DNA from: Campylobacteraceae bacterium
GTDB taxonomy: Bacteria; Campylobacterota; Campylobacteria; Campylobacterales; Sulfurovaceae
Assembly: GCA_027081355.1 (NCBI GenBank)
Contig: JALWKP010000031.1
Coordinates: forward strand, 1-24,658
Direction: 5' to 3'
Length of the DNA stretch: 24,658 nt
Shown here: positions 3,988 to 20,554 of the stretch, piece by piece
Position numbering within the stretch: the first letter of the stretch is position 1
How the letters are laid out: the number at the start of each line of letters is the position of its first letter
Notes under the pieces: model-generated
What the model was told of the DNA's origin: nothing
The model's input: the letters and a program-made list of their open reading frames with translations, nothing else
The model's database searches: none
Program-made: the position numbers and the translations under genes

Positions 3988-4314
3988 ATGAATGAGAACA
4001 ATTTAGATATTTTAAATTTGCTAGGCATTAATGCAAAGGATGGAAAAATTGATATAGATTTAAATAAAACTAAAAGTTTTTTTACAACTTTGCAAGAAAC
4101 ACTACAAGAAAAGGCGCAAAAAATCGATGAAAATATTAAAAATGACAAAGTTGATTTAGAAGATGTCGGATTAAAAATCGATAAAGAACATATTTCCTTG
4201 GATTTAAATAAAACCAAAAACTTTTTTGACGGTTTAACACAAAAATTGGAAAAATTTGTTGAAGAGATAGATAAAACAGCAAAAGAGTTAAAGAGACCGC
4301 TGGATAATAGTTAG
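3988..4314 (+). CDS. Hypothetical protein with a two-unit internal tandem repeat (about 40 aa each). The 3' end is contributed by a MITE-like element
   Basis: Repeat units IDIDLNKTKSFFTTLQETLQEKAQKIDE and ISLDLNKTKNFFDGLTQKLEKFVEEIDK. Strong SD AAGGGGG. The last 8 codons and the stop (KRPLDNS*) are encoded by the left inverted repeat of the dispersed element, copy C. Confidence 0.55.
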   Translation: MNENNLDILNLLGINAKDGKIDIDLNKTKSFFTTLQETLQEKAQKIDENIKNDKVDLEDVGLKIDKEHISLDLNKTKNFFDGLTQKLEKFVEEIDKTAKELKRPLDNS

Positions 4315-4449
4315 TTTCAAAGCATAGTGCTAGAAAGTGCCAGAAATTAAACAAAAAGACTCTATGACCTAGCTAAAGCTAAGCAGAGAGGAGTTTTTGA
4401 TTTATGATGTTTTATAATGCCTTAATTTAGGCTTGCTGATGTGTAAAAG
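4293..4449 (+). repeat. MITE-like dispersed repeat, copy C (left inverted repeat intact, right end degenerate)
   Basis: gagaccgctggataatagttagtttcaaagcatagtgctagaaagtgccagaaattaaa...ctagctaaagctaagcagagagga...gatttatgatgttttataatgcc aligns along its length with copy A at 17620-17782. Confidence 0.7.
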
Positions 4450-4498: not shown

Positions 4499-5200
4499 CT
4501 ACTTTCTATGCTCGATTAAATTGCCTTTATTGTAAGAGAGGATTTTGGTTATCTCTTTTTTTACTGCCGGGTCGCTTTTTTCACTGCTGATTATTTCTAG
4601 CATTTTACCGATATTTTCGTGTTTTAATTCGGTCTCTTTTATGTGTGCTTTAAAATTATACTCTTGTTCTTTTAAAGCGGCTTCGTGTTTTTGTTTGGCT
4701 AAATGTCTTAAGTATAAAATAATCAGCCAGGCAAATGCTACAAAAAGCGCTGCAACTGTTAACAGCTTATAAAGTCCTATCTCTTTTTCTTTAACTTCCA
4801 CCATTTTTTGGCTGTTTATTTTTGCAAGTTCAATAGAATTGTTTGCTTCTATCTGTTTTTGTTTAGTCTCTTGCTCTTTGATTTCTTTAGTTTTTTCCAG
4901 CTCTAACTCTTTTAATTTCTGCTCGTTTTTTGCTTTTATTTGGGCTAAATTTTGCTCTTTTTGCGCTTGCAGTTTTGCCATTTGCAGCTTGCTCTCTTTG
5001 TTTAATTTTTCTAAGCGCTCTTTTTGGCTTATCTGCACAGGTTTTATGGGGTTTTTTACTTTTTTATTATCGGTTTTTGGAACTTTTTTAATCATTGGAT
5101 TATTATTGTTTAATGCTTTTGTCTGCTCTACGCTTTTATCTGCGCTGCCTCCGCACCCGGTAATTATAACTGCACTTAATATTAATAGAAAACTTTTCAT
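4499..5200 (-). CDS. Coiled-coil lipoprotein with an internal transmembrane segment, function unknown
   Basis: MKSFLLILSAVIITGC lipobox. About 120 aa of K/E/Q-rich heptad-like sequence, then a hydrophobic span LLTVAALFVAFAWLIILYL followed by a charged C-terminal tail. Confidence 0.6.
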   Translation of the reverse strand: MKSFLLILSAVIITGCGGSADKSVEQTKALNNNNPMIKKVPKTDNKKVKNPIKPVQISQKERLEKLNKESKLQMAKLQAQKEQNLAQIKAKNEQKLKELELEKTKEIKEQETKQKQIEANNSIELAKINSQKMVEVKEKEIGLYKLLTVAALFVAFAWLIILYLRHLAKQKHEAALKEQEYNFKAHIKETELKHENIGKMLEIISSEKSDPAVKKEITKILSYNKGNLIEHRK

Positions 5201-7471: not shown

Positions 7472-8421
7472 TGTCAAAAAGTTTAAAAGAGATTGCTAAG
7501 TTTTTAGAGCTTGAATGCAACGAAGATTTGGAGATAAAAAAGCTTTTAACGCTTAAAGAGGCAGACAAAAACAGTTTAAGCTTTTTTCACGACGAGAAGT
7601 ATTTAAACGATTTAAAAAGCACTAAAGCCGGCGCAGTTATTTTAAAAGAGGAGTATCTTCAGTATCTGCCAAACGGGACAGTTGCGCTTGTGACTAATGA
7701 GCCTTATAAAAAGATGGCGCTTGCAACTTCTCTTTTTGCTTATATACCGAGCGTGCAGACTTTTGAGCCTGTTTTAAAAGAGGGGGCAGAAATTGCACAA
7801 AGTGTAAATTGCGGTAAAAATGTTACAATAGGAGCCGGCAGCAAAGTAATGGCGGGCTGCTTTTTGGGCGACGGTGCAGAGATTGGCGAAAACTGTATAA
7901 TTTACCCAAATGTTACGATATATCACGGCTGCAAAATCGGAAATAATACAATAATCCACAGCGGCACGGTAATAGGCAGCGACGGCTTTGGTTTTGTAAG
8001 CAAAGACAGCTCTAATACCAAATTTTACCAAATCGGCAATGTTGTTATAGAAGACAATGTGGAAATCGGCGCAAACTGCACGATAGACAGGGCGACTCTT
8101 GGCTCTACAATTATAAAATCCAATGCCAAGCTTGACAACTTAATTCAAGTGGGGCACAATTGCCAAATTGGCGAATACAGCATAATAGTTTCGCAAGTTG
8201 GATTGTCGGGTTCTACAATAGTGGGGCAAGGCGTGGTTATTGGCGGACAGTGCGGAACTGCGGGGCATTTAAAAATCGGCGACAGAGCAATGCTTGCAGC
8301 AAGAACAGGCGTAACCAAAAGCTTAGAAGGCGGCAAAATCTACGGCGGCTTCCCTGCGGTAGAGATAAAACTATGGCGCAAAATGCAAGCTGCGCTTATG
8401 CGGCTGGTTAAGAAGAGATAG
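7471..8421 (+). CDS. lpxD: UDP-3-O-(3-hydroxyacyl)glucosamine N-acyltransferase
   Basis: Left-handed beta-helix hexapeptide repeats (IGAGSKV..GDGAEIGENCIIYPNVTIYHGCKIGNNTIIHSGTVIGSDGFGF...). N-terminal domain typical of LpxD. TAATG overlap with ilvH. Confidence 0.85.
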   Translation: MSKSLKEIAKFLELECNEDLEIKKLLTLKEADKNSLSFFHDEKYLNDLKSTKAGAVILKEEYLQYLPNGTVALVTNEPYKKMALATSLFAYIPSVQTFEPVLKEGAEIAQSVNCGKNVTIGAGSKVMAGCFLGDGAEIGENCIIYPNVTIYHGCKIGNNTIIHSGTVIGSDGFGFVSKDSSNTKFYQIGNVVIEDNVEIGANCTIDRATLGSTIIKSNAKLDNLIQVGHNCQIGEYSIIVSQVGLSGSTIVGQGVVIGGQCGTAGHLKIGDRAMLAARTGVTKSLEGGKIYGGFPAVEIKLWRKMQAALMRLVKKR

Positions 8422-8465
8422 GATTGAACAGTGAAGATTTAGGATTTTAGGATTTCTTTCACCCT

Positions 8466-8483
8466 AAAGCCGCACAGCTTTTG
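8466..8483 (+). terminator. Weak hairpin plus T-tract downstream of lpxD
   Basis: AAAGC-CGCACA-GCTTT followed by TGG... A short stem, so low confidence. Confidence 0.25.
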
Positions 8484-8546
8484 GATGTAAATATTTTCTG
8501 CTTATGGATTTGAAATTCTAAATCCAATAGCATTGGAGATGTTTCG

Positions 8547-8723
8547 TTAATCTATAATTCTTAAAAAGTTATGAAGCCCCGCTCCTATCAAAATGGAGCC
8601 AAGCACAAAAGATTCATTTCCCGCTTGTATAGTATCGGTAACTGGAGAAAATTGTTCGGCAGTAAGATTCACTCCAGCATAAAGAAGAGAAGATGATATT
8701 AAAAAAATAACTATTCTATACAT
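8547..8723 (-). CDS. Small hydrophobic membrane protein (58 aa, two predicted TM helices) downstream of the SPFH gene
   Basis: My own translation: MYRIVIFLISSSLLYAGVNLTAEQFSPVTDTIQAGNESFVLGSILIGAGLHNFLRIID. GGGGAAAAG lies 5 nt upstream. It falls below the ORF-track size cut-off. Confidence 0.3.
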   Translation of the reverse strand: MYRIVIFLISSSLLYAGVNLTAEQFSPVTDTIQAGNESFVLGSILIGAGLHNFLRIID

Positions 8724-8765
8724 ATCTTTTCCCCATAACTGACATTTTTATGACAGCATTATAAC

Positions 8766-9875
8766 CTATTTAAGCTTAAACATTCCATTTAATACACCAT
8801 CTAATCCGTTGTAAATATTTAAAGTTCCGACAGTTCGTGTAATTTTTTCTAATGCTTCAAGCTCTTTCAAACGCGCTAAAGTCGGATTATCTTTCATTAA
8901 TTTTGCTGTATTAAGCAAAGAGCGTGTTGCTGCAGTTTCTTCACGGCGTTTAATAATATTAGCTTCTGCACGCTTTTTTGCTTCAATAACTTTATTAAAA
9001 ATTTCACGCATTTCACCAGGTAAAATTATGTCTTTAATATGTATATTTTTTAATTCAACACCGATACCATCTAAACTTTTTTTGAAATTTTGAACAATTT
9101 CTCCAGAAATTCTGTGCTGTTTTTGCAGCACTTCGTCAATTTCTAAATTGCCAATATGCTCTCGCACTGCAAATTGCAGCTGTTTATAGATGTATTCGTC
9201 TGCATCTTCTGCTTCGGTTATAAATTTTAAGCCGTCTGCAATTTTATAGTGCAGCACTGCATTTAGGCGGATTGTAACTTTATCCTTTGTTAGCAGTTCC
9301 TGCTGATTTAACGAAAGCTCTTTTAAGCGCTTATCAATTTGAGAAACTGTAATGGTGTTTAACTCATTAAAAAAGTAATATACTCCCGAATTTAGAGTCT
9401 TTTCATATTTTCCATTCCTAAACAGATATGCTTCTTCGCCTTCTCTTACATAAACTTTTAAAACAGAACTTGGCAAAATTTTCATTGTTTCAATATAATC
9501 GGCTTGCTCTTTGTTTAATTGATAATTGCTTCGGATATCAACCTTTTGCACTTGCAAATCAAGCTCTTTAAAATAGAGTTTTACAGCACCCAAAGGTAAA
9601 AAATCAGTAAATTTGCCGTCAATTTTTACAAAAGCCCTTTCATAGTCGTTTAACTCGATAATTTTAAACTCTTGATTGACAATTTCTATAAAGTTTTTGT
9701 AAAGCAGTTTTGCTTTTTCTCCGCTTATGCCGTTTTCTTTTTTATCGATAATTTCTACTCTATATCTGCCAAAAGGGTTAAAAAGTTTATGCACGCCGGT
9801 ATCTAACACCTTTATTAACTTTTCATCTTTGTAAACTAATGCTTTTTCACTCTCTTTTATTCTTATCTTAAACAT
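8766..9875 (-). CDS. SPFH/band-7 (stomatin/HflK/C-like) domain protein with no transmembrane segment and an N-terminal SPFH-like partial duplication
   Basis: The C-terminal half reads QELLTKDKVTIRLNAVLHYKIADGLKF...IKDIILPGEMREIFNKVIEAKKRAEANIIKRREETAATRSLLNTAKLMKDNP..ARLKELEALEKI, a canonical SPFH core. The start is trimmed to MFKIRI, which has AGGAG 6 nt upstream. The track start MLLALTKGDK lacks an SD. Confidence 0.65.
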   Translation of the reverse strand: MFKIRIKESEKALVYKDEKLIKVLDTGVHKLFNPFGRYRVEIIDKKENGISGEKAKLLYKNFIEIVNQEFKIIELNDYERAFVKIDGKFTDFLPLGAVKLYFKELDLQVQKVDIRSNYQLNKEQADYIETMKILPSSVLKVYVREGEEAYLFRNGKYEKTLNSGVYYFFNELNTITVSQIDKRLKELSLNQQELLTKDKVTIRLNAVLHYKIADGLKFITEAEDADEYIYKQLQFAVREHIGNLEIDEVLQKQHRISGEIVQNFKKSLDGIGVELKNIHIKDIILPGEMREIFNKVIEAKKRAEANIIKRREETAATRSLLNTAKLMKDNPTLARLKELEALEKITRTVGTLNIYNGLDGVLNGMFKLK

Positions 9876-9964
9876 TTTATCTCCTTTTGTTAAAGCTAAA
9901 AGCATAAAGCTCTAAGCTAAAAGCAGTTTGAATCTTATTGCTCTAAACTTGAAGCTTTTATTTA

Positions 9965-10001
9965 GGGCTTTGTTTTAAAGCATTGCTTTTAAACAAAGCC
10001 C
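9965..10001. promoter_or_regulatory. Long near-perfect hairpin (16-bp stem, 5-nt loop) in the SPFH gene upstream region
   Basis: gggctttgttttaaag-cattg-cttttaaacaaagccc. There is one mismatch in the stem. Confidence 0.5.
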
Positions 10002-10024
10002 AAGTTTTAAACGGAAAGCTGCGG

Positions 10025-10077
10025 GGTTAAAGTATTTGCGCGTCCTTAAGCGTAAAAACGCGCTTTTTGCTTTAACC
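10025..10077. promoter_or_regulatory. Nested hairpin (8-bp outer stem enclosing a 6-bp GC stem)
   Basis: ggttaaag...gcgcgt-ccttaagcgtaaaa-acgcgc...ctttaacc. Confidence 0.4.
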
Positions 10078-10149
10078 TCAAGGCAATTTTTCTGGTTTAA
10101 AGCTTTTAAGAAAATTTAAAATAAAAATTACATCCAAAATGTAATGCCT

Positions 10150-10330
10150 TACCACTTGGCTGCCAATACCAAACTGCGGTATCGGGCGGGACTCGAACCC
10201 GCGAACTTATAGAACGCCTTGTTTCTTTCAAGGGGCAGGAGTCGAACCTGCAAATTCCTACAGAGTAACTTCACTCAAGTTACAGAGGTGTATTCTAATA
10301 CACAAACCGCATAGCGGAAGTGCAAGGCAG
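10150..10330 (-). other. Cluster of tRNA-like fragments or structured RNA. There are two T-arm/acceptor-like 3' tRNA fragments plus three further stem-loops, none forming a canonical tRNA. They may be pseudo-tRNA or integration-site remnants, or an unrecognised ncRNA
   Basis: Minus-strand reading gives GCAGGTTCGACTCCTGC (rc of 10235-10251) and GCGGGTTCGAGTCCCGC-CCGATAC-C (rc of 10178-10202). Both match the T-stem/T-loop consensus GGTTCGA(N)TCC seen in the real tRNAs at 17941-18454. No partner acceptor or D-arm is present. Additional hairpins are GTGTATT-AGA-AATACAC, GTAACTT-GAGTG-AAGTTAC and CCTTG-AAAGAAA-CAAGG. Confidence 0.35.
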
Positions 10331-10418
10331 AAGCCAGGCAAAAGCTTGAAACTTCCTTTACACGCTGTAATTATATTTTAAAAAACGGACATATAGTGTC
10401 TTTTGGGAAAAATGGAGT

Positions 10419-11306: not shown

Positions 11307-11350
11307 ATATTGTCCTATATTAGACTTGTTGCAATATAAGTGCGGATAAT

Positions 11351-11515
11351 GAAACCGCTGCACAATAGCAAGCCCAAATTACAGCGTTATAAAATATCGT
11401 AAATCAAAAAAAATTATTTTTAGGCTTAGCTTTGACCAGGCTTTTAAGTAATTTTATTTAATTTTTGATACTTTCTGGCACCATACTTTGAAACTAGATA
11501 TTGCGCAGCGGTCTC
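11351..11515 (-). mobile_element. MITE-like dispersed element, copy B (165 bp, imperfect 17/19 inverted repeat, opposite orientation to copy A)
   Basis: gaaaccgctgcacaatag...gcccaaattacagcgttataaaatatcgtaaatcaaaaaaa...cttagctttgaccaggc...tttgatactttctggcaccatactttgaaactagatattgcgcagcggtctc. Its reverse complement aligns base-for-base with copy A. Confidence 0.75.
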
Positions 11516-11550
11516 ATAATTTGTTTATGGCATTTCATCGAACATAGCTT

Positions 11551-11594: not shown

Positions 11595-12344
11595 TTAATC
11601 TGTCAAAGCCTTAACAGTAGCAAACGGCGAAACTATATTGGAAATCAGCTGTAATGGATAAACCATATTTGTTGTATTAAGTTTAAACTCTTTTGAACTG
11701 TCTGGCTGAACATAAATTATATCGTTTGGCTTAATTATAATATTTGAAGCTTGCAATTTGTTAAAGTTTGTCAAGTCAAGTCTTCTCATATGCATTTTTC
11801 CATTTGCATCTGTGCTGATTACTATTATGTTATTTCTGACTGCATGGTCGGTTAAATCTCCTGCTGATGCAATAGCCTGCAATATTGTCATATACTCTTT
11901 ATCTACTTTAATCGGTCCGGGTTTTTTAACTTCGCCTAATACATAAATTCTTTTGTTTAAAACTTCTAAATTCAAAGCAGGGTTTCTTAAATATTTAGAG
12001 TATCTTCTCTCTAACATTTTAGCAGCCTCAGTCTGGGTCAAACCTGCTACATGGACTCTATGAATTAAAGGCAAAGAGATATCGCCGTTGCTATCGACTA
12101 AAATACCGTTGCTGTTAGGAGGAATTAAATCCGGATGCTGGTAAATAGTAATTGCCAATCTGTCATTTTTTAATATTCTGTAATCTATTTTAGCAGGAAT
12201 ATTTCCGTCATAACTTTGAGAAACCGAAGCTGCGCCGTCGGAATTTGAACTATCTATACTTTTATCTTGAAGCAGCTTATAATTCTTTGGAGCACAGCCT
12301 GTTATCAACAAAAGCATCACTAGCAGTATTATTTTCTTTAGCAT
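11595..12344 (-). CDS. wza: Polysaccharide export outer-membrane lipoprotein, Wza/OPX family
   Basis: Lipobox LLITGC. Poly_export-like YRILKNDRLAITIY and SLBB-type repeats (IYVLGEVKKPGPIKV, IIKPNDIIYV). SD AAGGA. Confidence 0.78.
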   Translation of the reverse strand: MLKKIILLVMLLLITGCAPKNYKLLQDKSIDSSNSDGAASVSQSYDGNIPAKIDYRILKNDRLAITIYQHPDLIPPNSNGILVDSNGDISLPLIHRVHVAGLTQTEAAKMLERRYSKYLRNPALNLEVLNKRIYVLGEVKKPGPIKVDKEYMTILQAIASAGDLTDHAVRNNIIVISTDANGKMHMRRLDLTNFNKLQASNIIIKPNDIIYVQPDSSKEFKLNTTNMVYPLQLISNIVSPFATVKALTD

Positions 12345-12347
12345 TTT

Positions 12348-13085
12348 TTATCCTTTTAAATTATTAAGAACTCTGTTTTTCTTAAAAATAGAGTTGTAAA
12401 TGTCTAACCTGCGAACCTCTTTTAAGCCTTCTATGTGCCTTAAACCATGGGCATCGCTTCCTACAAAATCCACCAGTCCGTTATTAACCAAATACTCGGC
12501 TTTATGCTTAGATTCTTTTCCGTATGCACCTGCTAAGGAGTTTAAATTCATTTGAAATAATACTCCAATATTTTTTAATGTTGCATACTCTTTAGCCGGA
12601 TTGCTGATATATCTATAGCGCTCAGGATGGGCAAAAACCGGAGTATAACCATTGGCTTGTATTTCAAATATCATATCTTCCAAATAGTAAGGTTTATGCG
12701 AAAAAGAGCTTTCAAAAAGCAAATAATTTTCGCCAAAAGTTAAAATATCCCCGCTTTCTAAATGCTCTAAAAAGCCGTCGTCTAAATAATATTCAGCCGC
12801 TGCTTCTATTTTAATTTTTAATCCTCTCAATTTTGCTTCTTTTTGCAGCAGTGCCAGGCTTTTTTTTATTTTAGCAGGTGTATTTTTATAAACATCAGCC
12901 ATAATATGGGGCGTTGCCACAATCTTTTCATATCCTAGCTCTTGCATTGCTTTAAGCATGGCGATAGATTCGCCCAAACTCTTTGCGCCATCATCAAGCG
13001 ACGGAAGAATGTGAGAATGAATATCGGTTGTCAATCGATATTTTGCCTCATTTTTTTTACTCTTTTTAAAAAACCAAAATGTCAT
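12348..13085 (-). CDS. wzb: Protein-tyrosine phosphatase, PHP-type (CpsB/YwqE-like), manganese-dependent
   Basis: DIHSHILPSLDDG..., ...TPHI..., ...FAHPERY..., ...GSDAHG... are PHP-domain metal-binding motifs. The start is trimmed to ATG 13085 (MTFWFF), which has AAGGTGG 5 nt upstream. The track start at 13094 is GTG. Confidence 0.78.
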   Translation of the reverse strand: MTFWFFKKSKKNEAKYRLTTDIHSHILPSLDDGAKSLGESIAMLKAMQELGYEKIVATPHIMADVYKNTPAKIKKSLALLQKEAKLRGLKIKIEAAAEYYLDDGFLEHLESGDILTFGENYLLFESSFSHKPYYLEDMIFEIQANGYTPVFAHPERYRYISNPAKEYATLKNIGVLFQMNLNSLAGAYGKESKHKAEYLVNNGLVDFVGSDAHGLRHIEGLKEVRRLDIYNSIFKKNRVLNNLKG

Positions 13086-17545: not shown

Positions 17546-17619
17546 ATGGTGTAAGTATCGTAAATAGGGGAGGGTCATCGCCATTAAATTAAGAATTTTA
17601 TATCCATAAAATGCAGAAA

Positions 17620-17782
17620 GAGACCACTGCACAATAGTTAGTTCCAAAGTATGGTGCTAGAAAGTATCAGAAATTAAATAAAATTACTCGAAAGCCTAGC
17701 CAAAGCTAAGCAGAGAGGAATTTTTTTGATTTATGATATTTTATAGTGCCGTAATTTGGGCTAACTATTGTGCAGTGGTCTC
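17620..17782 (+). mobile_element. MITE-like dispersed element, copy A (163 bp, perfect 20-bp terminal inverted repeats)
   Basis: Left TIR gagaccactgcacaatagtt (17620-17639). The right TIR aactattgtgcagtggtctc (17763-17782) is its exact reverse complement. Internal core ...ggtgctagaaagtatcagaaattaaataaa...ctagccaaagctaagcagagagga...gatttatgatattttatagtgccgtaatttgggct. No ORF lies within it. Confidence 0.8.
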
Positions 17783-17940
17783 ACAAAGCTTAAAGCTGAC
17801 AGAGAAAAGCATCTTGACATTCGTATTACAGAATCAAAAACAAATTTCTCTAATCTCCAATTTCTAATCTCTAATCTCTCTTCTCTAAATGGGTATTTTA
17901 CTATTAAGTTAATGATAATGCAGGAAAGTAATAAAATAAG

Positions 17941-18025
17941 TGGTGCGGATGAGAGGAGTCGAACCTCCACGCCTTGCGGCACTAGATCCTAAGTCTAGCG
18001 TGTCTGCCAGTTCCACCACATCCGC
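17941..18025 (-). tRNA. tRNA-Leu (anticodon TAG), class II with long variable arm
   Basis: rc: GCGGATG TG GTGG...CACG C TAGAC-TTAGGAT-CTAGT GCCGCAAGGCGT GGAGG-TTCGACT-CCTCT CATCCGC A CCA. 7-bp acceptor; CCA encoded. Confidence 0.85.
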
Positions 18026-18052
18026 AAAAAGGTTTAGCAATAAGCTAAAAGG

Positions 18053-18129
18053 TGGTACACCCGTTAGGATTCGAACCTAAGACCGCCCGCTTAGAAGGCG
18101 GGTGCTCTATCCAGCTGAGCTACGAGTGC
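18053..18129 (-). tRNA. tRNA-Arg (anticodon TCT)
   Basis: rc: GCACTCG TA GCTC AGCTGGATA GAGC A CCCGC-CTTCTAA-GCGGG CGGTC TTAGG-TTCGAAT-CCTAA CGGGTGT A CCA. Confidence 0.8.
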
Positions 18130-18191
18130 ATTTAAAATGGTTGCATATAGCACAAAAGGCTAATTAATCGCCTCTAGCCTACCAAACAGGT

Positions 18192-18268
18192 TGGTACGCC
18201 AGAGAGGATTTGAACCCCTAACCCTCTGATCCGAAGTCAGATGCTCTATCCAATTGAGCCACTGGCGC
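18192..18268 (-). tRNA. tRNA-Arg (anticodon TCG, by my fold)
   Basis: rc: GCGCCAG TG GCTC AATTGGATA GAGC A TCTGA-CTTCGGA-TCAGA GGGTT AGGGG-TTCAAAT-CCTCT CTGGCGT A CCA. Confidence 0.7.
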
Positions 18269-18291
18269 ATTTTAGAGGGAAGTGACTATAA

Positions 18292-18369
18292 TGGGGTGGA
18301 TAATGGGATTCGAACCCACGGCCCCCAGAGCCACAATCTGGTGCTCTAACCAACTGAGCTATATCCACC
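18292..18369 (-). tRNA. tRNA-His (anticodon GTG) with encoded G-1
   Basis: rc: G GTGGATA TA GCTC AGTTGGTTA GAGC A CCAGA-TTGTGGC-TCTGG GGGCC GTGGG-TTCGAAT-CCCAT TATCCAC C CCA. G-1 pairs with C73. Confidence 0.85.
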
Positions 18370-18377
18370 GCATAAGA

Positions 18378-18454
18378 TGGTCGGAGTGAAAGGACTCGAA
18401 CCTTCGACCCCCTGGTCCCAAACCAGGTGCGCTACCAGACTGCGCTACACTCCG
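18378..18454 (-). tRNA. tRNA-Pro (anticodon TGG)
   Basis: rc: CGGAGTG TA GCGC AGTCTGGTA GCGC A CCTGG-TTTGGGA-CCAGG GGGTC GAAGG-TTCGAGT-CCTTT CACTCCG A CCA. Confidence 0.85.
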
Positions 18455-18534: not shown

Positions 18535-19917
18535 TTATTTATTATCAAAGATGGATTCAAGCCTTTTTACCATTTCTAAAGCCTCTTCTTTGCTCAAAAT
18601 TTCACCCTCTATTTGGGCTTGATAAATTTTATTTAATATTTCACTGAATTTCGGCGACGGTTCTAATCCTAAATTTATCAAATCCCGCCCCTCTAATACT
18701 CTTTTTGGGGGCGCTTTTAGGCAATTTAAATCTTTTGCTTTTTTTAAAAGCCACTCTCCGGCTTCAAATTTCTCTTCATCTGCTCCGCCCCTGCCGTAAA
18801 AATCGGCTTGCGCCAATTTTACCAAACGGCTTATATTTACTTTTAAAGAGAGCCTTCTAATAGCGCTGCTTTTTGCCCCGCCTCTAAATAACTGCATAGG
18901 ACGCAAGTGAAATTCTACCAATTTTGCAACTTCGCGCTTTAACTCTTTATTATTTGTTAATCTTTTTAAAAAGTTCAGTGTCGGCTCAATTCCCTCTTTT
19001 TCGTGGTTAAATGCCCTAATCCGCCCATTGATAACTTTAGTAGTTGCCGGTTTTCCAAAATCGTGGCACAGTGCGCTAAACATTAAAATTAAATCTTCTT
19101 TCTCACTGCCGGTTCTTAATTTTGCCGCTTCATCAACCACCATTAATGTGTGAATCCAAACATCCCCCTCGGGATGATATGCCGGTTCTTGTTTTGTGCC
19201 TATTAGAGCCTCAAGCTCAGGAAAATATTTTAATATTCCAAATTCACGCATTAATTTTAATCCGACAGACGGTTTTGGAGCTTTTAAAAGCAGCTTTTTT
19301 ATCTCTTCGTAAATTCTCTCTTTTGGCAACTCTTCTAAATTGCCATTATCAACCAATTGACAACACAGTTTACGGGTTTCATTGCTAACTTTAAACCCAA
19401 ATCTTGCCGCAAACTGCACGGCTCTGTAAACTCTTAGCGGGTCTTGCGTAAAACTCTCTTTGTCAATTATTTGTAAAGTTTTGCTTTTAATATCTTCAGC
19501 GCCCCCAAATGGGTCAAGCAATTTCTGCTCTAAAATATCCCACCCCAAAGCATTGATTGTAAAATCCCGTCTTCTGGCAGCTTCTTTAAAATTTAGTTTC
19601 GCATCAACTTTAATTTCAAATCCCCTGTGCCCTTTGCCAACTTTGCTCTCTTGGCGCGGCATAGAAAAATCAAACTCGGTTTTGTCAATTCTAAGTTTTA
19701 CAACTCCAAAACTTTTGCCAACTAAATTTACAGCACCAAACTCCGATAAAATGGATGCTAAATCATTGTAAGAATTGATATTGTAAACCTCTATGTCAAA
19801 ATCTTTTACATCTTTTTGTAAAACAAAATCACGAACCGCCCCGCCAACTAAAATAGCTTTTGCCCCCGCTTTATCTAGCCGGTTTGCTATATCTATTAAA
19901 ATTTTTGGCAATTTCAT
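18535..19917 (-). CDS. cca: CCA-adding enzyme (tRNA nucleotidyltransferase with HD phosphohydrolase domain)
   Basis: LVGGAVRDFVLQKDVKDFDIEVY is the pol-beta head. Also RRDFTINAL, DPLRVYRAVQFAARFGF, HPEGDVWIHTLMVVD and LCHDFGK (HD). The start is trimmed to MKLPKI (or MERVMK at 19929). The track's 39-aa N-terminal extension is not CCA-like. Confidence 0.8.
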   Translation of the reverse strand: MKLPKILIDIANRLDKAGAKAILVGGAVRDFVLQKDVKDFDIEVYNINSYNDLASILSEFGAVNLVGKSFGVVKLRIDKTEFDFSMPRQESKVGKGHRGFEIKVDAKLNFKEAARRRDFTINALGWDILEQKLLDPFGGAEDIKSKTLQIIDKESFTQDPLRVYRAVQFAARFGFKVSNETRKLCCQLVDNGNLEELPKERIYEEIKKLLLKAPKPSVGLKLMREFGILKYFPELEALIGTKQEPAYHPEGDVWIHTLMVVDEAAKLRTGSEKEDLILMFSALCHDFGKPATTKVINGRIRAFNHEKEGIEPTLNFLKRLTNNKELKREVAKLVEFHLRPMQLFRGGAKSSAIRRLSLKVNISRLVKLAQADFYGRGGADEEKFEAGEWLLKKAKDLNCLKAPPKRVLEGRDLINLGLEPSPKFSEILNKIYQAQIEGEILSKEEALEMVKRLESIFDNK

Positions 19918-20026
19918 AACTCTTTCCATTCTCCTATCAGGGTAAAAAACAATGAGATTATGCAAAAGCTTGAAAAAAAGGAGCGGGGACTTTCGCACAG
20001 TCTCAATGTGAGCAGGGGTAATTCCC

Positions 20027-20554
20027 TCAATCCTCAATCCTAAAACCTAAAACTTCTCTTTCCCACTTTTTCGCATTAGGTTCTTTAAAGTAGCGGTTTA
20101 CTTTAAATTCACTCTCTTTTAACTCAAGCAAAACACACTCGGTTAAGTTTTTATTTCGCGCGCAAACCTCACCCGGGTTTAAAAATAACGATTTGCCGCG
20201 AAGTTCGGCGCTAAATTGATGCAAATGCCCAAAGAGCACCAAATCGCAATCGGCGCTCATATAGTATGGAAGGTGCATCATTTTTACTGTATAATCTTTG
20301 ATTTTTAAATAGTAAGGTTCTCTTTTAATCCGGTAATTTGCCTCTGCATGCATTAGTGCAATATCGTTATTTCCAAAAACAGCAGCATAAGGCACGCCCG
20401 CTTCGCTTAAAGCTTTTAAATTCTCTTCATTCTCTAAGTCACCTAGGTGCAAAAGATACTGAGCACCCTCCAAGAGCAGTTTTTCAATCGCCTTTTTTTG
20501 CAAATCTCCGCGTCTGTGGGTATCTGAAAGAACGCCTATTTTTACACTGCTCAC
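20027..20554 (-). CDS. Metallophosphoesterase, YfcE/MJ0936-like phosphodiesterase
   Basis: Motifs VLSDTHRR, HLGDL, GNND, GHLH. 175 aa. The stop overlaps the topA start (4-nt overlap). Confidence 0.75.
   Translation of the reverse strand: MSSVKIGVLSDTHRRGDLQKKAIEKLLLEGAQYLLHLGDLENEENLKALSEAGVPYAAVFGNNDIALMHAEANYRIKREPYYLKIKDYTVKMMHLPYYMSADCDLVLFGHLHQFSAELRGKSLFLNPGEVCARNKNLTECVLLELKESEFKVNRYFKEPNAKKWEREVLGFRIED

Follow-up and report, generated by a model that had tools for sequence, protein, structure and literature searches.

A structured RNA with tRNA-like modules precedes an SPFH/Band-7 gene in Campylobacterota

The region analyzed here lies in a 24,658-nt stretch of Campylobacteraceae DNA (the window) and encodes, on the minus strand, a structured RNA directly upstream of an SPFH/Band-7 (slipin) gene. 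The structure of this RNA is conserved and backed by covariation, and RNAs with T-arms recur upstream of distant slipin genes. The region is probably the RNA half of a two-part module that pairs a tRNA-mimicking RNA with a soluble SPFH/Band-7 protein. An initial annotation had offered three explanations for the tRNA-like fragments in the region: stacked remnants of integration at a tRNA 3' end (its favored reading), decayed tRNA pseudogenes, or a structured non-coding RNA that reuses tRNA-like modules. Structure, conservation and covariation bear out the last of these.

Promoter, transcript layout and the SPFH/Band-7 gene

The spacer upstream of the SPFH/Band-7 gene is free of ORFs for ~510-540 nt (10418 down to 9906 or 9876, depending on the start codon chosen), in agreement with the ~500 bp estimated initially. 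The span originally singled out, 10150-10330, carries a real signal, but the feature is wider and reaches from about 10400 to 9876. Its elements and the genes that follow are:

10387-10400, minus strand: operator-like quasi-palindrome GACA-CTATA-TGTC(C), in the -35 region of the predicted promoter
10370-10375, minus strand: -10 box TATAAT of the predicted RNA/SPFH transcription unit, invariant in 5 of 5 lineages
10265-10363, minus strand: 5' domain, helices P1-P4 (RNAalifold, 5 lineages)
10210-10260, minus strand: module 1, a reduced tRNA-like module without D-arm
10128-10207, minus strand: terminal module, a circularly permuted tRNA-Gln(UUG) mimic
10118-10127, minus strand: U-run UUUUUAUUUU directly 3' of the anticodon stem, a possible weak or partial terminator
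10002-10105, minus strand: 3' domain, formed by a long irregular helix with a variable apical hairpin (5' strand within 10105-10070; 3' strand, 10032-10002)
9965-10001, minus strand: hairpin GGGCUUUGUUUAAAAGCAAUGCUUUAAAACAAAGCCC between the 3' domain and the ribosome-binding site
8766-9886, minus strand: SPFH/Band-7 (slipin) gene, 369 aa, including the ribosome-binding site AAGGAG (9886-9881); start at 9875
8547-8723, minus strand: small hydrophobic ORF, 58 aa, directly 3' of the SPFH gene

A sigma-70-type promoter (TATAAT, 10375-10370) would drive the RNA, with transcription predicted to start ~7 nt 3' of TATAAT and the operator-like palindrome overlapping on the upstream side. This palindrome is a putative regulator binding site. 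The pattern GGACA-N5/6-TGWCC keeps its spacing to the -10 box in the window, in the relatives L140, L143 and L144, and also in L141 (by alignment); genes for HTH-WYL-WCX regulators flank the locus in L140 and L144/L145. The RNA would reach the SPFH start codon after about 450-490 nt, so that it would be made as the leader of the SPFH mRNA. These are predictions from sequence, for the promoter and both ends of the transcript as well as for co-transcription with the SPFH gene. From 5' to 3', the RNA would consist of a four-helix 5' domain, a reduced tRNA-like module, the permuted tRNA-Gln(UUG) mimic and a long 3' helix.

The 5' domain comprises P1 (GUGUAA/UUGCAC) with P1a (GGAAG/CUUCU, with an inserted hairpin), P2 (CCGC-UAU-GCGG), P3 (GUGUAU-UAGA-AUACAC, with an invariant UGUAUNAGA) and P4 (GUAACUU-GAGUG-AAGUUAC). 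P4 corresponds to a 7-bp hairpin already recognized in the initial annotation (10283-10265), which is real. RNAalifold over the 5 lineages yielded 28 pairs in this domain, 7 of them compensatory, one P1a pair occurring as A-U, G-C or C-G. Covariation in P4 is also visible by eye (GUAACUU/AAGUUAC, GUAGUUU/AAACUAC and GGAAUU/AAUUCC). A minimum-free-energy fold of the single sequence had proposed a long-range 5'/3' helix and a GGAAGU/ACUUCC stem; these were replaced by the P1/P1a pairing because the comparative data give them no support.

In the 3' domain RNAalifold placed 28 pairs, 15 of them compensatory, compared to 1-5 in slid controls. Paired cells amounted to 87.1% versus 29-52% in these controls, and the segments CUUG, CC.C and UCCG are invariant in the alignment. 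The hairpin that follows has counterparts of different sequence at the matching relative position in L140, L141 and L142. Upstream of the 3' domain, a U-run follows the anticodon stem in the window and in L140; it is missing from L141 and L144 and thus is not a conserved 3' end, and a terminator scan did not call it (10118-10127). In the window and L140 some transcripts could end there, that is, as a separate sRNA.

This layout bears on a cis-only explanation, in which a 450-nt structured 5' UTR controls SPFH expression and has no ribonucleoprotein role with the Band-7 protein; the leader might, for example, bind a tRNA-recognizing protein or serve as a substrate of RNase P or a tRNA-specific nuclease. 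In every case the RNA stands directly 5' of the SPFH gene on the same strand and is conserved up to the ribosome-binding site, with no conserved terminator in between. A hairpin stands just before the ribosome-binding site in L141 and L142; in the window and L140, ~80 nt separate the equivalent upstream hairpin from that site. However, three independent tRNA-like modules and a large 5' domain exceed the needs of a simple attenuator. Moreover, the better-studied analogous operon, rsr-yrlBA-rtcBA, encodes tRNA-like RNAs that are stable and act in trans as partners of the neighboring protein (PMC4201824). We therefore consider an exclusively cis-acting leader unlikely. Acting as a leader in cis and as a ribonucleoprotein partner are not mutually exclusive roles.

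The protein half of the proposed RNA-protein module matches Pfam Band_7 (E=3.7e-32). It has no hydrophobic segment of transmembrane grade (maximum KD19 0.67) and is thus probably soluble; PADLOC returned no defence-system match for it. The small ORF downstream has two hydrophobic segments; L121-L124 (58-65 aa) and also L140 (59 aa) have it called as a gene. It had no match in Pfam or PADLOC, and whether it is part of the system is uncertain. Since the window contains no RtcB, RlaP, RtcR or WYL gene, the link of its RNA to RNA repair comes from relatives. The MITE copy that the initial annotation placed 1 kb away is indeed a repeat (11350-11526), with further copies of ~170 nt at 4282-4443 and 17617-17783. 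It is unrelated to the RNA, because relatives that carry the RNA have different upstream neighbors.

Module 1 and the permuted tRNA-Gln(UUG) mimic

Both T-arms reported initially are genuine: T-arm 1 (GCAGG-TTCGACT-CCTGC, 10251-10235) and T-arm 2 (GCGGG-TTCGAGT-CCCGC, 10202-10186), on the minus strand. A search for GGTTCGANTCC allowing at most one mismatch returned 8 matches in the window, with 0.48 expected. Five of these lie in true tRNAs, one (with one mismatch, plus strand) is at 18659-18669, and the remaining two, both exact, are inside the T-arm region.

In module 1, the strand UAGGA is followed by a 4-nt 'variable loop', T-arm 1, a closed 5-bp stem (CCUUG-AAAGAAA-CAAGG) and the strand UUCUA. 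The closed stem had been described as an anticodon-arm-like hairpin and is real (10233-10217); it covaries, being CCUUG/CAAGG in the window and CCUUU/AAAGG in L140. The equivalent of module 1 is complete in L143 and L144, with a T-arm, a closed stem, UA, a D-arm and A, and is closed by a 5-bp helix that its flanking strands form. Such 5-bp closing helices of internal modules occur at tRNA spacing. The modules are labile: the D-arm of module 1 is missing from the window and L140, and in L141 this module is without the T-loop sequence, a hairpin of the same shape (ACAGA-CUGAAAA-UCUGU) standing in for T-arm 1.

For neither T-arm had a complementary 5' acceptor strand or a D-arm been found. This is incorrect for T-arm 2, as both are present downstream: CCGATACC (10185-10178) pairs with GGTATTGG (10170-10163) over the loop GCAGTTT, and a D-arm and an anticodon arm follow. 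The earlier search had been directed upstream, the usual position of these elements in a tRNA. The terminal module thus reads, on the minus strand:

10202-10186, minus strand: T-arm 2, preceded by the variable loop AGUUC
10185-10178, minus strand: acceptor 3' strand and C73
10177-10171, minus strand: loop GCAGUUU
10170-10163, minus strand: G-1 and acceptor 5' strand
10162-10161, minus strand: 2-nt linker CA
10160-10146, minus strand: D-arm, GCC-AAGTGGTAA-GGC
10144-10128, minus strand: anticodon arm UUACA-UUUUGGA-UGUAA (TTACA-TTTTGGA-TGTAA in the DNA)

When the module was rejoined in normal order, ARAGORN called it as a tRNA-Gln(ttg) that forms a perfect cloverleaf (75 nt). As encoded, the chain of the mimic runs from the variable loop through the T-arm, the acceptor 3' strand, the 7-nt loop and the acceptor 5' strand to the D-arm and the closed anticodon arm, so that all elements of the D-loop/T-loop elbow and of the L-shape are present. 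In the alignment of 4 lineages, 97.6% of the cells of the terminal module are paired, compared to 28-42% in slid controls, and 9 pairs are compensatory (0-2 in controls). Acceptor-stem pairs show compensatory changes at 4 positions across lineages. All 5 anticodon-stem pairs differ between the window and L144, whereas the loop UUUUGGA is invariant. The covariation analysis as a whole draws on 4-5 lineages, two of them close.

As encoded, the module possesses all elements of a tRNA but in permuted order, and tRNA finders do not call it. ARAGORN (tRNA and tmRNA) and Rfam at the gathering score call no tRNA or tmRNA here, in line with the initial statement that no canonical tRNA is present. More specifically, ARAGORN finds at this locus no contiguous 5'-to-3' cloverleaf with an acceptor formed from two ends; the Rfam tRNA model (RF00005) matches with positions 10-42 only, at 22.4 bits (gathering score 29); and the Rfam tmRNA model covers only 17-18 nt of each T-arm. 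The initial annotation had named a single known RNA family spanning the region as what would overturn its interpretation. The best Rfam match over the core is indeed to one family, YrlA (RF02553), but it remains below threshold (28.5 bits, E=5e-4; gathering score 69). In this match 10118-10231 aligns to the model with T-arm, closed stem and D-arm paired. The modules of L140, L143 and L144 align with these helices paired as well, and YrlA matches every module in the relatives at 27-39 bits (28-39 for the module-1 equivalents of L143 and L144), spanning model positions 23-88 only. No Rfam family reached its gathering score in the region; sub-threshold matches to snoRNA, miRNA and similar families fell on AT-rich hairpins and were disregarded. 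Because tRNA finders miss such loci and Rfam scores stay below threshold, annotation shows nothing but intergenic space at these places, or they are mistaken for tRNA remnants.

The quality of the cloverleaf raises the question of a working permuted or two-piece tRNA-Gln, matured by RNase P, 3' processing and CCA addition into two paired RNAs that serve in translation, in the manner of two-piece tmRNAs. The de-permuted tRNA-Gln(UUG) is flawless, with a 7-bp acceptor stem and an invariant anticodon loop. We know of no bacterial precedent for such a tRNA-Gln. Against a role in translation, L143 lacks the anticodon arm, the acceptor stem of L141 has a U.U mismatch, and the window strain carries C8 where U8 is near-universal; the relatives and another strain have U8. 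In addition, the element is tied to an accessory gene and not to translation genes. A role in translation is thus very unlikely, even though a YrlA RNA of M. smegmatis with a 7-bp acceptor stem is cut by RNase P and given a CCA in vivo (PMC4201824).

Another idea is that tandem tRNA-Gln duplicates lost their outer halves, so that what remains of copy 1 (its 3' half) pairs, now without function, with what remains of copy 2 (its 5' half). Permuted genes in general are likely to have arisen by tandem duplication, the loop starts with GCA at the CCA position, and true tandem Gln-Gln pairs, as in L059, show the same 7/7 complementarity. Yet a pseudogene would not be expected to show an invariant loop together with compensatory changes in 4 pairs of the acceptor stem and 5/5 of the anticodon stem, and the promoter, 5' domain and 3' domain are co-conserved. 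The same topology also occurs upstream of a slipin gene in a Firmicute. Recent horizontal copying is disfavored by identities of 56-87% for the proteins and ~70% for the nucleotides of the aligned loci. Functionless duplicates are therefore highly improbable. Decayed pseudogenes in general, the second of the explanations offered initially, are rejected because nearly every helix has compensatory changes across lineages whose SPFH proteins are 56-87% identical.

A more specific role is conceivable for the terminal module, as bait or sensor for an anticodon nuclease specific for tRNA-Gln(UUG). Such a bait would have to copy the loop of its cellular target exactly, which would account for an invariant UUUUGGA on a stem free to vary. 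We regard this proposal as speculative and, at present, improbable. If true, cleavage in the loop would sever the 5' RNA from the SPFH mRNA, and the resulting 2',3'-cyclic-phosphate and 5'-OH ends could activate the Band-7 module or signal to the WYL regulator, similar to the known activation of RtcR by damaged tRNA fragments. The locus would then be a self-contained RNA-damage sensor made from a permuted tRNA.

Conservation with the SPFH/Band-7 gene

The whole spacer from TATAAT to the SPFH gene is kept in 5 Campylobacterota lineages that differ in their other neighbors. The RNA lies on the same strand directly upstream of SPFH orthologues in L140 (87% protein identity), L141 (70%), L143 (57%) and L144-L147 (56-57%), whereas the gene farther upstream varies (an esterase, an APP1 phosphatase, a protein without known function, an AAA_14 protein or a WYL regulator). 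L145 carries RtcB and an RF-1-domain gene 2 kb upstream, as well as WYL at the locus. The esterase was tried as a synteny anchor and dropped: where its orthologues (64-80% identity) have no SPFH gene next to them, the genes downstream are different and the RNA is absent. The RNA is strictly linked to the Band-7 gene and not to the esterase.

This linkage speaks against stacked attachment-site remnants of integrative elements targeting a tRNA 3' end. Two T-arm plus acceptor segments do stand in series, and the MITE-like repeat is 1 kb away. On the other hand, the scanned ORFs of the window include no integrase or island genes, no island border is seen, and the locus has no intact tRNA. Serial integration yields an intact tRNA followed by displaced 3' fragments, while here the 3' fragments come first and the 5' half follows. 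Furthermore, the element covaries, is conserved, and moves as a unit with the SPFH gene into different neighborhoods. The reading favored initially is thus extremely unlikely.

A viral scan for a T-loop, N22-32 and a Gln-type D-arm was swamped by ordinary tandem tRNA-X/tRNA-Gln pairs. The same pattern with a non-T required two bases before the D-stem gave 4 matches in genomes, all ordinary tandem tRNAs, which says nothing on distribution because the relatives and another strain carry T (U8). A metagenome scan for two T-loops 28-48 nt apart plus a D-arm, a spacing too narrow for relatives such as L144, also gave 4 matches, none homologous; each consisted of a tRNA, a minihelix and a further tRNA or tRNA-like fragment, called as tRNA-Gln in L137-L139. 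The invariant 5'-domain motifs had 0 matches in a viral scan, and tblastn of the SPFH protein against phages found none.

Beyond the Campylobacterota, slipin homologues with 31-36% identity in E. coli, Burkholderia and Subdoligranulum have T-arm RNAs upstream and genes for the ligase RtcB, the nucleotidyltransferase RlaP or the regulators RtcR or WYL beside them. In Subdoligranulum (L150), WYL is followed by a T-arm / T-arm + 7-bp closed stem + D-arm + hairpin, then slipin, RtcB and RlaP. The E. coli locus (L148) has a T-arm and a 7-bp closed stem before slipin and RlaP. In Burkholderia (L149), RtcR precedes a T-arm minihelix and a tRNA-like gene in normal order (Rfam tRNA, 44 bits), followed by slipin and RtcB. 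The slipin-RlaP island region, carried for example by strain WAT (NZ_CP012380), is present in 1,632 of 5,426 complete E. coli genomes, and the T-arm RNA upstream is unannotated; E. coli is a tractable host for testing the RNA-protein partnership.

By analogy with Ro60 and Y RNAs, and following the proposal of Burroughs and Aravind, the RNA and the Band-7 protein would be cognate partners. Under RNA-damage stress, the tRNA-shaped modules of the RNA would interact with tRNA-recognizing factors, candidates being tRNA-modifying enzymes, RNase P, the CCA-adding enzyme, RNA-repair enzymes and anticodon nucleases. Given the 7-bp acceptor stem of the terminal module, G+1 (~10169) may be a site of RNase P cleavage, as reported for the M. 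smegmatis YrlA, which would part the upstream RNA from the SPFH mRNA. The locus bears on what tRNA-shaped domains do in Y RNAs of bacteria and in RtcB repair operons.

Relation to known tRNA-like RNAs

Soma and co-workers in 2007 and Chan and co-workers in 2011 are said to have described circularly permuted tRNA genes in Cyanidioschyzon merolae, some green algae and Thermofilum. As in these genes, the 3' half here lies upstream of the 5' half and a short spacer joins the acceptor ends. The algal and archaeal genes give rise to ordinary tRNAs through a circular intermediate and the BHB splicing endonuclease, a pathway that to our knowledge bacteria lack. In contrast, the module in the window has its ends at position 43/44, inside a much longer predicted transcript.

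A bacterial precedent for a permuted tRNA-like gene is the two-piece tmRNA of alpha-proteobacteria and cyanobacteria, which is made from a permuted ssrA and whose pieces stay paired after processing. The RNA in the window differs in having neither a tag reading frame nor a series of pseudoknots, and the ARAGORN tmRNA search was negative. Plant mitochondrial t-elements and the MALAT1 mascRNA are single tRNA-like elements in normal order without a dedicated protein partner. They share with the present RNA that a tRNA-shaped element within a longer transcript could direct RNase P and set RNA ends.

YrlA (RF02553; Chen et al. 2014, PMC4201824; Wang et al. 2018) has the same succession of T-arm, loop-closed acceptor stem, 2-nt linker and D-arm, a helix of flanking strands that closes the module as in the internal modules here, and an operon position beside a putative protein partner in RNA-repair neighborhoods. 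The relatives carry one to three tandem modules of YrlA topology, compared to one in YrlA. Furthermore, the terminal module keeps a closed anticodon arm, which puts the chain break at the variable loop instead of the anticodon loop. The RNA has no Ro60-binding helix, and the motif GNCGAAN0-1G of that helix is absent from the window, L140, L141 and L143, its sole match, in L144, falling on the junction of D-arm and anticodon stem. No rsr/TROVE gene was found among the scanned ORFs of the window or the called genes of L121-L147. Lacking Ro60 motif and rsr, and scoring 28.5 bits against a threshold of 69, the RNA is not a strict YrlA.

The closest counterpart is the b7a-tRNA, short for band 7-associated tRNA, which, according to the relevant passage of 10.1101/312249, Burroughs and Aravind predicted in 2016 beside Band-7 and RtcB genes. 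The same passage describes it as strongly resembling authentic tRNA, notes that YrlA now and then adjoins a Band-7 protein, and states that no member of the b7a-tRNA/Band-7 partnership had been validated experimentally (10.1101/312249). The RNA in the window fits this class, itself a prediction, in adjoining a Band-7 gene. It has every tRNA element, though in permuted order, and its relatives and distant homologues lie beside RtcB, RlaP, RtcR or WYL. On that account, the Band-7-associated tRNA-like RNA has been a computational prediction since 2016, with no Rfam family. The window and its relatives now give a covariation-backed secondary structure for one lineage of the class. Whereas ARAGORN and Rfam recognize the Burkholderia example, whose order is normal, the version in the window is permuted; it adds a reduced module upstream and a covarying leader of ~450 nt, and there is no RtcB in the window. 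These loci show that an entire tRNA-Gln, permuted and with its anticodon loop fixed, can make up the mimic, and that the RNA and Band-7 gene persist as a minimal pair without RtcB.

The permuted tRNA-Gln module

As reported in the initial annotation, two T-arm-like hairpins are present on the minus strand, at exactly the positions assigned there:

10251-10235, minus strand: T-arm 1, GCAGG-TTCGACT-CCTGC
10202-10186, minus strand: T-arm 2, GCGGG-TTCGAGT-CCCGC

With at most one mismatch allowed, the T-loop consensus GGTTCGANTCC had eight matches in the window (0.48 expected). Of these, five fall within the genuine tRNAs at 17941-18454, two exact ones within the RNA locus, and the remaining one, with one mismatch, at 18659-18669 on the plus strand. 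Neither ARAGORN nor Rfam at its gathering score called a tRNA or tmRNA at the locus, in agreement with the earlier view that no canonical tRNA is encoded there. The accompanying claim that both T-arms lack a 5' acceptor strand and D-arm is false for T-arm 2, for which both were found directly downstream; the original observation thus holds for the T-arms and the missing tRNA call, but not for this point. Directly 3' of CCGATACC is the loop GCAGTTT, and beyond it the complementary strand GGTATTGG. A 2-nt linker then leads to a D-arm of the Gln type (GCC-AAGTGGTAA-GGC), which is followed by an anticodon arm (TTACA-TTTTGGA-TGTAA) and a U-run. Once the two halves of this terminal module were rearranged into normal order, with the upstream 3' half placed behind the downstream 5' half, ARAGORN called a tRNA-Gln(UUG) of 75 nt. 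Its acceptor, D- and anticodon stems measure 7, 3 and 5 bp, its variable loop has 5 nt and its T-arm is perfect. Thus, the locus holds a complete tRNA whose acceptor end is closed and whose chain is instead open between positions 43 and 44.

The lineage that the window represents is uncultured, belongs to the Campylobacterota and lies near Sulfurovum. One MAG and three assemblies of metagenomes or read runs hold near-identical copies of the locus; the patterns used in the single genome scan and the single metagenome scan shut out true relatives. Two copies, L121 and L124, define the following variants:

10162, 10158, 10154 and 10379: strain-level SNPs

At position 8 (10162) the window has C, and L124 and all relatives have U, identifying C8 as a strain variant. 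The D-loop U of the window is C in both copies, and D-stem pair 3 changes from C-G to U.G in L121. All SNPs in the tRNA-like module are compatible with the tRNA fold.

Conservation and covariation

SPFH/Band-7 orthologues in relatives share 87% (L140), 70% (L141), 57% (L143) and 56-57% (L144-L147) protein identity with that of the window. Directly 5' of each, on the same strand, lies a spacer of 470-630 nt homologous to that of the window, whereas the genes further upstream are different at each locus, indicating from synteny that the RNA moves together with the SPFH gene. Orthologues of the upstream esterase (64-80% identity) have other downstream genes and no RNA. The conserved elements are a TATAAT box, a quasi-palindrome, a four-helix 5' domain, one to three tRNA-like modules and a long 3' helix.

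The internal modules of L143 and L144 are complete, comprising a T-arm, a loop-closed stem of 5-6 bp, UA, a D-arm and A, with flanking strands that form a 5-bp helix and a 4-5 nt "variable loop". Module 1, which contains T-arm 1, has lost the D-arm in the window and L140 and kept the T-arm, closed stem and closing helix; the closed stem covaries between them (CCUUG/CAAGG versus CCUUU/AAAGG). In L141, module 1 lacks even the T-loop sequence, yet retains two hairpins of equal dimensions. Given this layout, the hairpin first described as anticodon-arm-like is really the loop-closed, acceptor-like stem of module 1.

Covariation was assessed over four to five lineages. In the permuted module, 97.6% of cells were paired, versus 28-42% with slid helix partners, with 9 compensatory pairs versus 0-2. 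Between the window (UUACA/UGUAA) and L144 (AAGUG/CACUU), none of the five anticodon-stem pairs is the same, yet the loop UUUUGGA is identical. The 3' domain had 87% of cells paired (29-52% in slid controls) and 15 compensatory pairs (1-5 in controls), and the 5' domain had 7 compensatory pairs. This strong covariation of all three parts, together with the movement of the RNA with the SPFH gene, excludes att-site debris, the reading initially favored. The compensatory changes likewise rule out decayed tRNA pseudogenes. The third original proposal, a structured ncRNA reusing tRNA-like modules, was right.

A nearby repeat had been annotated as a MITE. The repeat is real, but is not part of the tRNA-like RNA, as RNA-bearing relatives have different upstream neighbors. 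Its three copies (~160-175 nt, 74-87% identity) are:

4282-4443, plus strand: intergenic repeat
11350-11526, minus strand: intergenic repeat
17617-17783, plus strand: intergenic repeat

The esterase and capsule-export genes flank one copy, and another is found beside the tRNA cluster. A gene of the CCA-adding enzyme/poly(A) polymerase family (18535-20037, minus strand; PolyA_pol head, RNA-binding and HD domains) adjoins this Pro-His-Arg-Arg-Leu cluster and topA, probably as ordinary housekeeping synteny.

Promoter, neighboring genes and distant slipin loci

The window itself carries only the RNA, the SPFH gene and, 3' of the latter, a small hydrophobic ORF:

10375-10370, minus strand: TATAAT box, invariant across lineages
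10387-10400, minus strand: quasi-palindrome GGACA-N5/6-TGWCC, upstream of TATAAT, overlapping the -35 region of the RNA/SPFH promoter
8547-8723, minus strand: hydrophobic ORF of 58 aa with two hydrophobic segments, directly 3' of the SPFH gene

The distance of the quasi-palindrome to the -10 box is identical in the window, L140, L141, L143 and L144. As a candidate operator, it may serve the HTH-WYL-WCX regulators that flank L140 and L144/L145. No conserved terminator separates the RNA from the SPFH gene across the compared lineages, and the U-run is confined to the window and L140, suggesting in silico that the RNA is co-transcribed as the SPFH mRNA leader. No transmembrane-grade segment was seen in the SPFH protein, which is therefore probably soluble. 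The 58-aa ORF, which matched no family, is also among the called genes of L140 and of the near-identical copies; its product may serve the soluble Band-7 protein as a membrane partner.

In L140, a two-gene HEC-01 candidate defense pair (7559-9357; AAA_15/21 ATPase and DUF4276 protein; PADLOC E=1e-124 and 3e-66) adjoins the WYL regulator that follows the RNA-SPFH unit, which suggests that this locus sits in a defense/stress island. L145 carries RtcB and an RF-1-domain gene 2 kb upstream.

As an independent test of the predicted Band-7 association, full-length slipin homologues (31-36% identity) of E. coli, Burkholderia and Subdoligranulum were examined; in all of them, a T-arm RNA lies shortly 5' of the gene on its strand. 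In Subdoligranulum, a T-arm precedes a T-arm, 7-bp closed stem, D-arm and hairpin in the permuted topology of the window, flanked by a WYL protein, RtcB and RlaP. In Burkholderia, a divergent rtcR and slipin-rtcB enclose a T-arm minihelix and a tRNA-like gene in normal order, which has a short anticodon loop and scores 44 bits with the Rfam tRNA model. In E. coli, a T-arm and closed stem are followed by slipin and RlaP, the pair being inserted between a DUF3811 gene and lysC:

L148 (CP061233.1), about 4805-4842: T-arm TGGG-TTCGATT-CCCA plus 7-bp closed stem, unannotated, upstream of slipin-RlaP

This region occurs in 1,632 of 5,426 complete E. coli genomes; among the eight records listed, the only annotation under it is the slipin CDS start. 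A Zeta-toxin-domain ORF fragment lies just 3' of the pair (L148 7332-7883).

Similar-looking units were seen on phage contigs, in tRNA-rich regions and without an ARAGORN tRNA call, and in metagenomic tRNA clusters. The latter "minihelices" (acceptor-like stem and T-arm ending in CCA, without D or anticodon arm) are preceded by a genuine tRNA-Thr or tRNA-Pro and followed by a tRNA-Gln or tRNA-like fragment.

L016 about 12150-12450; L038 about 2941; L061 about 3775; L098 oriented position 854: phage T-arm, 7-bp closed stem and Gln-type D-arm units
L137 about 150-205; L138; L139; L136 about 9275-9320: minihelix units

The L016 unit looks like two interleaved tRNA-like units beside a phage tmRNA, and the L038 unit possibly represents two intron-containing tRNAs in tandem.

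Possible function and relation to known RNAs

Comparison of the loci establishes, at the level of sequence, a conserved, highly structured RNA with tRNA-shaped modules, a conserved promoter and an obligatory link to a Band-7 gene. By analogy with Y RNA and Ro60, it would be the cognate RNA of the Band-7 protein and might offer tRNA-like surfaces to tRNA-recognizing enzymes during an RNA-damage response. Only in M. smegmatis does YrlA have an acceptor stem of 7 bp, and this RNA is cleaved by RNase P and gains CCA in vivo (Chen et al., PMC4201824). With the 7-bp acceptor stem of the terminal module, RNase P cleavage is predicted at about 10169, which would part the upstream RNA from the mRNA. 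That the tRNA-Gln anticodon loop does not vary suggests recognition of the loop itself. That the terminal module acts as bait or sensor for an anticodon nuclease is an improbable in silico reading; a competitive-inhibitor idea was raised for YrlA by Hughes et al. (PMC7790460).

YrlA was the best Rfam match for every module in the window and relatives (27-39 bits), far under the 69-bit gathering threshold. A motif search of the RNA found no Ro60-binding motif GNCGAAN0-1G, and rsr/TROVE genes were absent from every locus examined; on these grounds, YrlA in the strict sense was rejected. Unlike YrlA, the terminal module keeps a closed anticodon arm. According to Wang et al. (bioRxiv 10.1101/312249), YrlA occasionally adjoins the Band-7 protein, and a Band-7-associated tRNA beside Band-7 and RtcB was predicted by Burroughs and Aravind in 2016, with no experimental validation of either. 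As described there, this class of Band-7-associated tRNA-like RNAs is a better home than YrlA, and the element is probably a new member of this predicted, unvalidated class; its distinctive feature is a complete tRNA-Gln mimic in circularly permuted form within a covarying leader of ~450 nt.
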